The notes under the pieces were generated by a model. It was not told where the DNA came from and ran no database searches. It saw only the letters and a list, made by a program, of their open reading frames with translations. A DNA stretch of 64,000 bases from assembly GCA_964434885.1 (NCBI GenBank), contig CAYSWQ010000003.1:6882-70881 (forward strand), in the 5' to 3' direction. How positions within the stretch are numbered: position 1 is the stretch's first letter; every line of letters starts with the position of its first letter. The translations under genes and the position numbers were made by a program. The stretch comes from an uncultured Methanosarcinales archaeon. Its GTDB lineage: Archaea; Nanobdellota; Nanobdellia; Woesearchaeales; GW2011-AR9. This document shows, one piece after another, positions 11,948-42,147 of the stretch.

Positions 11948-11960
11948 TTAAAAATAATTA

Positions 11961-12049
11961 GCGCGGAGGGAGACTCGAACTCCCGATCAGAGGGTTGCAG
12001 CCTCTTGCCGTGGCCGCTTGTGGGCTTTAGCCGCTTGGCCATCCGCGCT
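11961..12049 (-). tRNA. tRNA-Cys (anticodon GCA), 89 nt, with an extra 15-17 nt insertion in the D-arm region (probable non-canonical intron)
   Basis: Reverse complement GCGCGGA...TCCGCGC acceptor stem. T-arm GGGAG TTCGAGT CTCCC. Anticodon arm AGAGG CTGCAAC CCTCT with U33, GCA, A37. The region between acceptor and anticodon stems is 36 nt instead of about 19 and contains a duplicated CAAGCGGC. Confidence 0.6.
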
Positions 12050-12742
12050 TGAGTTTAATGCGTTAATTAATCTTTGTTGCTTTATTGGATGTTCAAACCC
12101 AACATATTTAAAAAAGTTTCTGAAAGAAGATTTTTCTATATCAATATGAAGACACCTACTCCTACTACCATCTTTCCTGGTATTTAATTTAAAATGACGT
12201 ACTGGTGAAGACTTAACTCCAAACTTAGCCAACATAGATCTTAGTTGTTCAAAATATCTAATTCCAGAATCAATTAATAAACTATTCTTTGCCATTCTAA
12301 AACTTATTCTCCAACGTAATTTCTTTCCCCTAGTGATGTGTATGCTTCCTTCGTTATCAAATAATCCCCTCAAGTAAGAGCTTTGTATTTCTGGTGTGCC
12401 ATTGAAAACCCACTCGGGAACTACAAACGAATTATTGGTTTTATTTCCTACTGGAGTTCCTATCTCTTTCAAAAAAACACAGATTGGTTTTGAAATAATA
12501 AATAATTTATATCGTCTTGTGGAGTTTGGGCTTTTTTTGGAAGTGCTATCATCTACATAAATTCTTCCTTCTATTTCAAATAAATCGAAAAAACGTTGTT
12601 TGACTGCTTTTATTTCTTCTAAATTCTTTGAATAAAAAGAAGCAAGATATCTCCATTTATCAATTTGTAAATGACCATCTCCCGTTAAATCAGCTACAGT
12701 GCGAGCTAGTTTTGGATTTTTCTTTAAGTGTTGCATTTTCAA
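11987..12742 (-). CDS. Double-motif LAGLIDADG homing-endonuclease-like protein, free-standing
   Basis: LARTVADLTGDGHLQ and LRGLFDNEGSIHI motifs about 100 aa apart, Lys/Arg-rich. The last roughly 20 codons overlap the 5' part of tRNA-Cys. Confidence 0.6.
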   Translation of the reverse strand: MKMQHLKKNPKLARTVADLTGDGHLQIDKWRYLASFYSKNLEEIKAVKQRFFDLFEIEGRIYVDDSTSKKSPNSTRRYKLFIISKPICVFLKEIGTPVGNKTNNSFVVPEWVFNGTPEIQSSYLRGLFDNEGSIHITRGKKLRWRISFRMAKNSLLIDSGIRYFEQLRSMLAKFGVKSSPVRHFKLNTRKDGSRSRCLHIDIEKSSFRNFFKYVGFEHPIKQQRLINALNSSADGQAAKAHKRPRQEAATL

Positions 12743-12781
12743 TTACTACTTTAAATGCAACAAGTAAGAAAATATAAAAAT

Positions 12782-12808
12782 CCTACCTGGACTTGTCCAC
12801 TTGTCCAG
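12782..12808 (-). promoter_or_regulatory. Second copy of the tandem GTGGACAA promoter element (minus strand: CTGGACAAGTGGACAAGTCCAGGTAGG), abutting a TATA-like box upstream of the LAGLIDADG gene
   Basis: Followed on the minus strand by atttttatatttt, then the ATG at 12742 about 28 bp further on. Confidence 0.5.
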
Positions 12809-12839
12809 TTGATTTCAAAAAAATTATTTAGAAATAATA

Positions 12840-12979
12840 TGGACCTGAAGGGATTCGAACCCTCGATCTACAGCTTAGAAGGCTCTAGCGGGACAATTTG
12901 TCCTGTCGCCATATTTGACCCACGTTTGGGGCAAGCCCGGGAACTATGTTCCCCGTGTCCAGGCTAGGCTACAGGTCCA
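12840..12979 (-). tRNA. Intron-containing tRNA (about 140 nt; at least two insertions including a hairpin in the D-loop; isotype unresolved)
   Basis: Reverse complement GGACCTG...CAGGTCC-A acceptor. T-arm GAGGG TTCGAAT CCCTT. D-stem GCCT/GGGC interrupted by GGGGAACATAGTTCCC hairpin. About 45 extra nt between the D and T arms. Confidence 0.55.
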
Positions 12980-19592: not shown

Positions 19593-20484
19593 TAAAACAA
19601 TTTTTTTGTGCGGTTTTCAAATCACTCAAATAAATTGTGCTGGTATCTCTTTCTGTGTAGAGGTTTTTGTAGATATCGGCGGCGGCACTGAGAGATTGTT
19701 GGGTTGCACCAGCCGCTCCACTTCCAGCCAAATATAATCCTGGGCCAGCAAAAATACCACTCTTCAACATAATTACTCCTCCGGCTGCTACGGCCAGGTT
19801 TCCGAAAGCCCGACCTCCTTTTTTGAGAATTGTTTCCCAAGAAACTTTTTTGTTCTTAGCACCAAAACTAATCCCATAAGCATGGTTAGGTTTAATATCT
19901 GCTTGAATAACGACTCTACCTGGACCTCCGTGGCTTTGAAAATATTCTATGTATTTTTTGCCTGCCTTATCATAAGGATTATTAAGAAGATATTTATAAA
20001 AATCATTAAAAGAAATTTGGTCTCCTTTCTCAAAACCATCGGTATTTTTAATAAAAAGAGAATAACATAAAAAACAATCATTTTTTTTACTAAATTCAGG
20101 TAAAACTGTTTTGGTTGCCCCTTCTTCAACTGCTTCTGATGCTAAGTCTTTCTTAAGTATTTCTTCGTATCGACCTTCCCCAAACATCCACCAACATTGA
20201 GCCATGCTATCTGCGATCTGTTTTTTTACTTTTTCTTTATCTTCTTTGATATCTTGATCACAAGTTTTACATAATAAAGGAGAAGTGTGGATGTCTTGGT
20301 TATCTATTTGAATAGTGGTAGTGGTAGCTCTTAAGTTGACACTCCATTGACAAATCTCTTCTGCTTTTTTACAATCATCAGTAGTACTAAAATTAATAAC
20401 TATGGGGGCCAAAACTAGAAAAGAAACAATGGTAATGATTGCCCCAACTAAAAAAGAGGAGGCTTCTACTGCTCGTTTATTCAT
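19570..20484 (-). CDS. Pilin-like/secreted protein (304 aa)
   Basis: MNKRAVEASSFLVGAIITIVSFLVLAPIV N-terminus. First gene of the 20.5-16.3 kb block. Confidence 0.4.
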   Translation of the reverse strand: MNKRAVEASSFLVGAIITIVSFLVLAPIVINFSTTDDCKKAEEICQWSVNLRATTTTIQIDNQDIHTSPLLCKTCDQDIKEDKEKVKKQIADSMAQCWWMFGEGRYEEILKKDLASEAVEEGATKTVLPEFSKKNDCFLCYSLFIKNTDGFEKGDQISFNDFYKYLLNNPYDKAGKKYIEYFQSHGGPGRVVIQADIKPNHAYGISFGAKNKKVSWETILKKGGRAFGNLAVAAGGVIMLKSGIFAGPGLYLAGSGAAGATQQSLSAAADIYKNLYTERDTSTIYLSDLKTAQKNCFSGDIAGK

Positions 20485-34498: not shown

Positions 34499-35038
34499 AT
34501 GAAAACAAATTTGGTCTTGATGGAAGAAAGTAAAATTGATTCTTTGGGTTTTGATAGAACTTTGTTTTTGGGGAAGGATTTTGTTTTGGTTGTTGGGGAA
34601 AATAAGAAAGAGTTGTTGAAAAAGATTAGTAAAGCTAAACAACAAGGGTTGAAAGTTGTTGTTAGAGTTAGTTCTGAAGAAATTTTGAGGTTTGTTGTTG
34701 AAAAAACTGCTGTTAATATGATTATTGGTCAAGAAAAAATTAATTTAAAAGATTCTGTTCATTTTCTTCGAGGAGGATTAGATCAAGTTAGTTGTAAAAT
34801 TTGTGCTGAGAAAGGAATTATTGTTGGTTTTAGTTTTGGAGATATTTTAAGTTTGAATGGGGTTGCTAGAAGTAAGTTGTTGGGTCGGATGAAATTTAAT
34901 ATTAAATTATGTAAAAAATATGGTGTTAAATGTTATTTTGGAAGTTTTGCTGATGATTTTTTTGGATTGAGAAGTAGTCATGATTTGCAGAATTTTTGGG
35001 AAGTTTTGGGTGGAATTGGGAATTGTTTAGAGATTTGA
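34499..35038 (+). CDS. Possible RNase P protein subunit Rpp30-like (TIM-barrel)
   Basis: 179 aa. The C-terminal FGSFADDFFGLRSSHDLQNFWEVLG resembles the Rpp30 SSGA..LR.P.D motif. Weak. Confidence 0.3.
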   Translation: MKTNLVLMEESKIDSLGFDRTLFLGKDFVLVVGENKKELLKKISKAKQQGLKVVVRVSSEEILRFVVEKTAVNMIIGQEKINLKDSVHFLRGGLDQVSCKICAEKGIIVGFSFGDILSLNGVARSKLLGRMKFNIKLCKKYGVKCYFGSFADDFFGLRSSHDLQNFWEVLGGIGNCLEI

Positions 35039-41253: not shown

Positions 41254-42147
41254 ATGGAAATTACTATTTTGGGTACTGCTTGTATGCAACCTACAAAAGA
41301 TAGAAACCACGTAGGCATTTTACTTAGTTATGGGAAGGAAAAAATATTATTTGATTGTGGAGAAAATATTCAAAGACAATTAAGAATTGCTGGTTTAAAG
41401 CCTGCCAAAATAACCAAACTCTTTATTTCTCATTGGCATGGAGATCATGTTTTGGGAGTTCCTGGTTTAATGAGTAGCATGGGTGCAGATAATGCTGCAG
41501 GAAAACTACTCATTTATGGTCCTAAAGGAACTAAAAAAAGAATTGAATATCTAAGAAAAGCATTTGAAAGCAAACATATGGTGGATTATGAAGTTCATGA
41601 AATTGTACCTGTTGGTAAAAAAGTTAAAAAAATTGAATTTGATAATTATTTCTTTGAAGTTCGTAATTTAGAACATGGTGTTGGTTGTTTAGGATATAGA
41701 ATGGTTGAAAAAGATAAATTAAAAATTAAACCTAAATTTGTTAAAAAAATTCCAGGTATTTTGTTGGGAAACTTACAAAAAGGAAAAAATATTGAATTTG
41801 AAGGAAAGAAAATCAAATCTCCTGAAGCAACTTATTTGGTTCCTGGTAAAAAGATAGTTATTTTAATGGATACTCGGCCATGTACTACTTTTGTTAAATT
41901 AGCCCAAGAAGCTGATTTATTAATTACAGAAGCGACTTATTTAGATGAACATAAAGATAAAGCAGAAGAATATTTACATTTAACTGCAAAAGAAGCAGGT
42001 ATGTTGGCAAACCAAGCCAATGTTAAGAAATTAATATTATTACACTTTAGTTCTCGGTATAAAGATATTTCTTTGATTAGAGAAGAAGCAAAAGAAGTTT
42101 TTGAAGATGTTGTTTGTGCTGAAGATTTTATGAAATTTAAAATATGA
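41254..42147 (+). CDS. rnz: Ribonuclease Z (tRNA 3'-processing endonuclease, metallo-beta-lactamase fold)
   Basis: HxHxDH motif SHWHGDHVLGVPGL. 297 aa. Confidence 0.8.
   Translation: MEITILGTACMQPTKDRNHVGILLSYGKEKILFDCGENIQRQLRIAGLKPAKITKLFISHWHGDHVLGVPGLMSSMGADNAAGKLLIYGPKGTKKRIEYLRKAFESKHMVDYEVHEIVPVGKKVKKIEFDNYFFEVRNLEHGVGCLGYRMVEKDKLKIKPKFVKKIPGILLGNLQKGKNIEFEGKKIKSPEATYLVPGKKIVILMDTRPCTTFVKLAQEADLLITEATYLDEHKDKAEEYLHLTAKEAGMLANQANVKKLILLHFSSRYKDISLIREEAKEVFEDVVCAEDFMKFKI

Follow-up and report, generated by a model that had tools for sequence, protein, structure and literature searches.

This report concerns two neighbouring tRNA genes, tRNA-Cys(GCA) and tRNA-Arg(UCU), interrupted by one and by two insertions respectively, which lie on the minus strand of a 64,000-nt stretch of archaeal DNA from contig CAYSWQ010000003.1 (referred to here as the window, that is, the whole stretch that was analysed). 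The window has a GC content of 31%, and the region contains two GC-rich islands, each of which is one of these minus-strand tRNA genes. Their parts, as deduced from a bulge-helix-bulge (BHB) analysis and from comparison with orthologues, are as follows.

11960..12048, minus strand: tRNA-Cys(GCA) gene, 89 nt including the discriminator U73 (Rfam RF00005, 46.7 bits; ARAGORN after splicing).
12027..12048, minus strand: tRNA-Cys exon 1, positions 1-22, GCGCGGAUGGCCAAGCGGCUAA, of which the final 6 nt are the 5' strand GGCU of the central helix H and the bulge nucleotides AA.
12010..12026, minus strand: predicted tRNA-Cys intron, 17 nt, AGCCCACAAGCGGCCAC, at position 22/23 of the D-arm (BHB scan and orthologues).
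11960..12009, minus strand: tRNA-Cys exon 2, positions 23-73 (ARAGORN on the spliced product).
12840..12978, minus strand: tRNA-Arg(UCU) gene, 139 nt including the discriminator A (ARAGORN after removal of both introns; orthologues).
12959..12978, minus strand: tRNA-Arg exon 1, positions 1-19, GGACCUGUAGCCUAGCCUGG (BHB search and ARAGORN on the product).
12915..12958, minus strand: predicted tRNA-Arg intron 1, 44 nt, ACACGGGG...GUGGGUCAA, at position 19/20 of the D-loop (relaxed BHB; locus L007).
12905..12914, minus strand: tRNA-Arg exon 2, 10 nt, AUAUGGCGAC, positions 20-28, holding the 3' strand UGGC of the D-stem.
12885..12904, minus strand: predicted tRNA-Arg intron 2, 20 nt, AGGACAAAUUGUCCCGCUAG, at position 28/29 of the anticodon stem (strict BHB; loci L142 and L007).
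12840..12884, minus strand: tRNA-Arg exon 3, positions 29-73 (ARAGORN on the spliced product).

The tRNA-Cys gene has, as a preliminary description made from the sequence had read it, a perfect acceptor stem, T-arm and anticodon arm (AGAGG-CUGCAAC-CCUCU), with a stretch of 36 nt, as against the expected 19, separating the acceptor stem from the anticodon stem, and with two copies of the 8-mer CAAGCGGC. U73 is the discriminator expected for a tRNA-Cys. The fit to RF00005 requires a 20-nt insertion, which the model places in the D-loop, and ARAGORN miscalls the raw gene as a class II tRNA-Leu(CAA) in both its default and its intron modes. In a scan of the gene for BHB motifs, one solution only also restores a tRNA: excision at 22/23, where the motif is strict, with a central helix GGCU:GGCC (4/4 pairs), bulges AA|A and AC|G, and helices h' and h of 2 bp each. 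The predicted ligation junction is GGCUAA^GGCA, and the spliced product is a 72-nt standard cloverleaf that ARAGORN calls Cys(GCA), with the D-arm GCCA-AGCGGCUA-AGGC. The predicted D-arm GCCAAGCGGCUAAGGC is identical in the intron-less genes of loci L131, L146 and L160 and in the D-arms of L155 and L166, so that 5 of 13 related tRNA-Cys genes carry exactly this sequence.

The tRNA-Arg gene, which has the acceptor stem GGACCUG/CAGGUCC and the T-arm GAGGG-UUCGAAU-CCCUU, goes undetected by ARAGORN with its default settings and by an Rfam search at E<=1. When the ARAGORN threshold is lowered, a call does appear, but its 70-nt "anticodon-loop" intron is wrong and its D-arm poor. Manual reading of the sequence, followed by an automated search that allowed one, two or three BHB introns, yielded two introns. 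Intron 1 is cut at CCUGG|A and CAA|AUAUGG, with the predicted ligation CCUGG^AUAUGG, bulges GG|A and AA|A, and an inner helix h' CACG:CGUG of 4 bp. Intron 2 has a strict motif (H = GGCG:CGCU, 4/4 pairs; bulges AC|A and AG|A; h' = GGACA:UGUCC, 5 bp), which is present in the minimum-free-energy fold; its excision, with the junction GGCGAC^AGCC, creates a perfect anticodon arm, ACAGC-CUUCUAA-GCUGU, with the anticodon UCU. Removal of both introns leaves a 75-nt standard cloverleaf called Arg(UCU) by ARAGORN, which supplies the isotype that the preliminary description had left undecided. That description was right to give this gene about 140 nt, at least two insertions, and a proper acceptor stem and T-arm. 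The hairpin that it noticed, GGGAAC-AUA-GUUCCC, is indeed present and sits within intron 1, but the D-stem GCCT/GGGC that it drew around it does not hold, as GGGC is intronic and the real strand is UGGC. The surplus, which it took for a D-arm hairpin plus about 45 nt before the T-arm, is actually 44 + 20 nt, two introns lying in the D-loop and the anticodon stem. A nested arrangement, with an inner 19-nt BHB candidate (12935..12917), was rejected: the remainder has no BHB, and the product disagrees with the orthologues.

All three insertions share one geometry: a 4-bp helix flanked by two 3-nt bulges, one on each strand, with the cuts behind the second bulge nucleotide. In each precursor, the last four exon nucleotides before the 5' splice site would pair with the four intron nucleotides just 5' of the 3' splice site to form the central helix H, so that the two splice sites come to lie in 3-nt bulges, one per strand; EndA, the tRNA splicing endonuclease, would cut behind nucleotide 2 of each bulge, and an RtcB-type ligase would then join the exons to yield the 72-nt tRNA-Cys and the 75-nt tRNA-Arg. 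Canonical 37/38 introns in loci L155, L166 and L144 validate this cut rule: in them H covers positions 32-35 and the cut lies behind position 37. In both spliced products all stems pair and U8, A14, G18G19, U33 and the T-loop are present, and both spliced D-arms are identical to the D-arms of intron-less genes in related genomes. In a control with the junctions fixed from the orthologues and 20,000 shuffles of each intron, the proportion of shuffles scoring at least as high as the real BHB (H + h') was 1.0% for Arg intron 1, 0.005% for intron 2 of the same gene and 0.14% for the Cys intron. Five of six independent metagenome assemblies have exactly the same tRNA region, which is therefore not an assembly artefact. 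A group I intron is not indicated: there is no Rfam match to one, and the insertions are 17, 20 and 44 nt long and lie in the D-arm and anticodon stem, as against a ribozyme core of at least ~200 nt in the anticodon loop. Split or permuted tRNA genes are ruled out, both genes being contiguous and colinear.

Taken together, both are very probably functional tRNA genes interrupted by archaeal BHB introns at non-canonical sites (22/23 in tRNA-Cys; 19/20 and 28/29 in tRNA-Arg). That archaeal introns occupy non-canonical positions here, as had been proposed, is borne out by the archaeal host, by a BHB at every junction and by the canonical products. The relaxed motifs then envisaged apply to Arg intron 1, with three of four pairs, whereas the Cys intron and Arg intron 2 have strict ones. 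Covariance-model scoring, suggested at the time as a check, yields no ordinary intron-less tRNAs, since RF00005 needs the 20-nt insertion for the Cys gene and misses the Arg gene at E<=1; the ARAGORN intron mode, also suggested, proved a poor guide, miscalling the raw Cys gene as Leu(CAA) and reporting the Arg gene only at the lowered threshold with a wrong intron.

Several points weigh against this interpretation. The central helix of Arg intron 1, GCCU:GGUC, forms only three of four pairs, with one C.U mismatch, and its BHB lies outside the minimum-free-energy fold (-37.9 kcal/mol for the model vs -52.2 kcal/mol for the minimum). The Cys BHB likewise differs from the minimum-free-energy structure, and its outer helices have only 2 bp each, so thermodynamic folding recovers one of the three motifs, that of Arg intron 2. 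One of the six assemblies (L002) lacks 10 nt of the tRNA-Cys gene (12018..12009), namely G23 and the nine intron nucleotides before it. The 3' splice site would thereby be lost; either true variation or an error of assembly may be the cause. EndA was absent from the 28 of 55 window open reading frames (ORFs) that were scanned against Pfam, as was RtcB. Finally, splicing is deduced from sequence: we infer that both precursors are actually cleaved and their exons ligated, and that the host EndA would tolerate the relaxed motif of Arg intron 1.

Some of these same points would fit a reading in which both genes are decaying pseudogenes with insertions that are not removed, functional copies being encoded elsewhere in the genome. 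The failure of standard tools on the Arg gene, the deletion in the Cys gene of one assembly and the imperfect central helix of Arg intron 1 all go in that direction. We nevertheless consider decay very unlikely, because the exons are free of defects, with all stems pairing and all universal nucleotides present after excision, and match intron-less orthologues; because the insertions are located exactly where a BHB forms; because about 23 of the 38 loci of the lineage that were compared also bear introns; and because five of six assemblies are identical in sequence. A TATA-like box ~30 nt upstream of the Arg gene and oligo-T runs behind both genes, read by eye, also argue against decay.

Two other alternatives are even less probable. 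The Arg gene might have three introns, a 17-nt hairpin intron and a 29-nt intron separated by a 4-nt micro-exon GGGC that serves as the D-stem strand, plus the 20-nt intron, giving a mature tRNA with ...GGACAGGGCGACAGCC... The attraction of this model is that GGGC is a better partner for GCCU than UGGC is (U13-G22 in place of U13.U22), but neither the 17-nt nor the 29-nt piece has junctions at which a BHB would form, by manual check or in the BHB scan; locus L007 has UGGC immediately behind the D-loop; the BHB of the single 44-nt intron is homologous to those of loci L138, L149, L141 and L167; and the automated search, free to choose one to three introns, settles on two. For the Cys gene, the insertion might instead be the remnant of a 17-nt tandem duplication, removed or arisen between the two CAAGCGGC copies, with the D-arm GCCAAGCGGCCACGGC. 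In its favour, the 8-nt direct repeat is exact and has a 17-nt spacing, and ARAGORN also accepts this product as a tRNA-Cys. Yet no register inside the repeat forms a BHB (by manual check; the BHB scan lists 22/23 only), and the resulting D-arm ...GGCCACGGC occurs in none of 13 orthologues, against five for the GCCAAGCGGCUAAGGC of the 22/23 product, which makes this reading hard to credit. With the intron placed at 22/23, the repeat may still be a record of its origin as a copy of the gene's own D-arm.

Comparison with orthologues shows ongoing gain and loss of such introns. Scanning with the 5' 21-mer of the tRNA-Arg gene, one genome per species, returned 38 loci, mostly from Woesearchaeota and Nanoarchaeota; in 14 of them the gene is 75 nt long, free of introns and of the same exon pattern, and the majority (~23) have one to three insertions, which the automated BHB search assigns to 19/20, 20a/21, 28/29, 29/30, 37/38, 43/44 and 59/60. 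A metagenome scan with the 3' pattern GGTTCGAATCCCTTCAGGTCCA gave bacterial tRNAs only. The closest available relative is a Tara contig (L007; RadA 87% identical), which ends in ...GGACCTGTAGCCTAGCCTGGATATGGCGACAGGACAA and has a tRNA-Arg with intron 2 and without intron 1. At the site of the latter it reads CCTGGATATGGCGAC, which is the predicted spliced junction of intron 1, the D-arm matching base for base. The 28/29 site is occupied by a near-identical intron in L142 as well as in L007. Across the 19/20 introns the exon strand GCCU is invariant, while the intron strand of H is GGGC, GGGU, AGGU, GUGC or GGUC, and the inner helix h' is built from unrelated sequences (CACG:CGUG, UACUG:CAGUA or CGCAU:AUGCG). 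The 44-nt intron of the window is homologous to 44- and 46-nt introns at the same site in the Arg(CCU) genes of L138 and L149, with which it shares the core CGG-RYUUGCC and the end GGGY(C)AAAUA. The occurrence of one intron family in two isoacceptors of distant genomes, together with its absence from the nearest relative, implies that, to judge from these comparisons, the intron was recently gained or lost.

Related loci hold other disrupted or partial tRNA sequences. In L134 (5565-5743) and L135 (two matches ~100 nt apart), a partial copy of the 5' portion of tRNA-Arg, 37 nt that stop in the anticodon loop and have CGCGCGCAAAC behind them, lies ~65-80 nt upstream of the complete gene, with 5' ends ~100-120 nt apart. 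L157 (3799-4008) has a 24-nt partial copy of tRNA-Cys 113 nt upstream of the complete gene, with 5' ends 137 nt apart. These could be recombination remnants, integration sites or halves of split genes. Insertions of ~20 nt directly behind U8 (8/9) are seen in the Woesearchaeota tRNA-Cys genes of L176 (2223-2347), L159 (4976-5112), L132 (4606-4748) and L144 (6352-6487), often paired with a second intron, and at several of these loci ARAGORN reports no tRNA-Cys. The 37/38 introns of tRNA-Cys in L145, L155, L166, L175 and L159 have UGAUGA ... CGAUGA/AUGA ... CUGA-like boxes around a short hairpin, an arrangement reminiscent of intron-encoded C/D-box guide RNAs, one of which is encoded in the intron of archaeal tRNA-Trp.

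The rest of the window shows an archaeal host and a need for both tRNAs. It encodes the archaeal proteins RadA (with an HhH domain), an RPA-like protein, TBP, TFE and RNase P p30, and a Pfam scan adds NFACT, an AsnC-type regulator and a tRNase Z-like protein. Two of these genes are for enzymes that process tRNA ends.

34499-35038, plus strand: RNase P subunit p30.
41254-42147, plus strand: tRNase Z-like metallo-beta-lactamase.

The nearest named relatives of RadA, at 71-87% identity, are Woesearchaeota or Nanoarchaeota, which makes the host a DPANN archaeon, by protein similarity a Woesearchaeote, and the unchanged RadA protein is found on contigs of several marine metagenomes. Synteny with more distant relatives breaks down downstream of RadA. 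AGA makes up 318 of 582 Arg codons (55%) in the window ORFs, and a working tRNA-Arg(UCU) is therefore needed; Cys codons are decoded by tRNA-Cys(GCA) alone. Searches of the window with ARAGORN, with Rfam at E<=1 and with a scan that looks for T-loop motifs and GC-rich islands yielded no third tRNA gene; the last of them is blind to tRNA genes with a T-loop intron. A sub-threshold Rfam match to the H/ACA snoRNA SNORA66 (20246-20376, plus strand; 34 bits vs a gathering score of 45, E = 0.048) is probably due to chance in AT-rich sequence.

The 791-nt spacer between the Arg and Cys genes is occupied by another gene.

11987..12742, minus strand: LAGLIDADG endonuclease ORF (Pfam LAGLIDADG_3, E = 8.9e-10; conserved part ~12736..12050).

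The ORF has the motifs LTGDGHL and LRGLFDNEGS. Its open frame extends 62 nt into tRNA-Cys, and we treat it as context and not as part of an intron. A PDB sequence search returned nothing significant, while 55 homologues of ~230-250 aa each come from Woesearchaeota or Nanoarchaeota. The gene is linked to tRNA-Cys: in all nine loci compared (the window and eight others, 40-72% identical, namely L159, L169, L170, L171/L172, L173/L174, L175, L176 and L177), the ORF ends at most ~30 nt from the 5' end of tRNA-Cys(GCA) or overlaps it. Some of these loci also have a tRNA-Arg gene upstream of the endonuclease gene, co-oriented with it in L169, L171 and L175 and on the other strand in L176. The tRNA-Arg(UCU) and tRNA-Cys(GCA) genes are neighbours in many relatives, in several of them only 2-28 nt apart and without the endonuclease gene, and tRNA-Cys genes without it are common. 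A tie between the endonuclease and non-canonical Cys introns is unsupported: such introns occur without the endonuclease in L132, L144 and L165, and we therefore see no specific link between the two. No description of the linkage to tRNA-Cys was found in a limited literature search. The endonuclease may be a homing element targeting the flank of tRNA-Cys, in which case its target might be conserved tRNA sequence, or it may be an anciently retained gene. It is a tentative and rather doubtful proposal that the gene is part of a site-specific element, either mobile or retained by the host, that is bound throughout Woesearchaeota to the 5' end of tRNA-Cys(GCA). If it were true, then together with the gain and loss of BHB introns, exemplified by a 44-nt intron that is absent from the closest relative and homologous to Arg(CCU) introns of distant genomes, the Arg-Cys tRNA pair of a DPANN genome would be a hotspot for selfish insertions of two different types.

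The endonuclease ORFs of the window, L159, L170, L171 and L173 share a conserved upstream motif (12780-12810, minus strand, in the window), (C)ACTGGACA...GGATA, behind which comes a TATA-like box. The window copy forms the hairpin CTGGAC-AAGTGGACAA-GTCCAG, and the motif may serve as a promoter, an operator or a binding site for the endonuclease itself.

The practical consequence of these gene structures is that default tRNA finders mislabel the Cys gene as Leu and miss Arg-UCU, by which the most frequent Arg codon of the window is read, and bins of such archaea will therefore appear to lack essential tRNAs. The genes also add well-defined introns of the D-loop, D-stem and anticodon stem from a marine Woesearchaeote, and the comparative series of seven sites in one tRNA family, with presence and absence between close relatives, is useful for the study of intron gain and of EndA specificity in DPANN archaea.

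Introns of this kind are known from other archaea. In Crenarchaeota and Nanoarchaeota, the non-canonical sites 20/21, 22/23, 25/26, 29/30, 30/31 and 59/60 are established, with up to three introns per gene (PMC4090602); in our numbering the sites 19/20 and 28/29 of the window are one nucleotide off the listed 20/21 and 29/30. The non-canonical introns of Thermoproteales (Sugahara 2008, Fujishima 2010, reviewed in PMC4090602) are, like those predicted here, short, protein-spliced, flanked by BHB or relaxed BHB motifs and located outside 37/38, and similar introns recur there in different tRNAs, as does the homologous D-loop intron in Arg(UCU) and Arg(CCU) here. However, their hosts are hyperthermophilic crenarchaea, whereas the host of the window is a mesophilic marine DPANN archaeon. 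The pre-tRNA-Glu(UUC) of Methanopyrus kandleri likewise has a D-loop intron with a relaxed HBh' motif plus a second intron, and its relaxed intron needs a permissive endonuclease or slow cleavage (PMC5829648); unlike in the window, where the second intron is at 28/29 and known from sequence, the second M. kandleri intron is a canonical 37/38 one, and splicing was demonstrated biochemically. Relaxed motifs are cut only by EndA forms bearing an extra loop (PMC5829648). Closest in kind are the disrupted tRNA genes and EndA variants (ARMAN-2 epsilon2, L3-loop alpha4) of DPANN archaea, the superphylum to which the host of the window belongs (PMC3239211, PMC3488258, PMC5829648): tRNA gene disruption is increased in multiple DPANN lineages, in a survey that includes a Woesearchaeote, and has been linked to an EndA with the extra loop L3 (PMC5829648). 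The particular genes, intron sequences and sites of the window do not appear in the accessible portions of these three papers (PMC3239211, PMC3488258, PMC5829648). The two genes are new examples of an intron type already documented in DPANN archaea, and they leave the current picture of archaeal tRNA introns unchanged.

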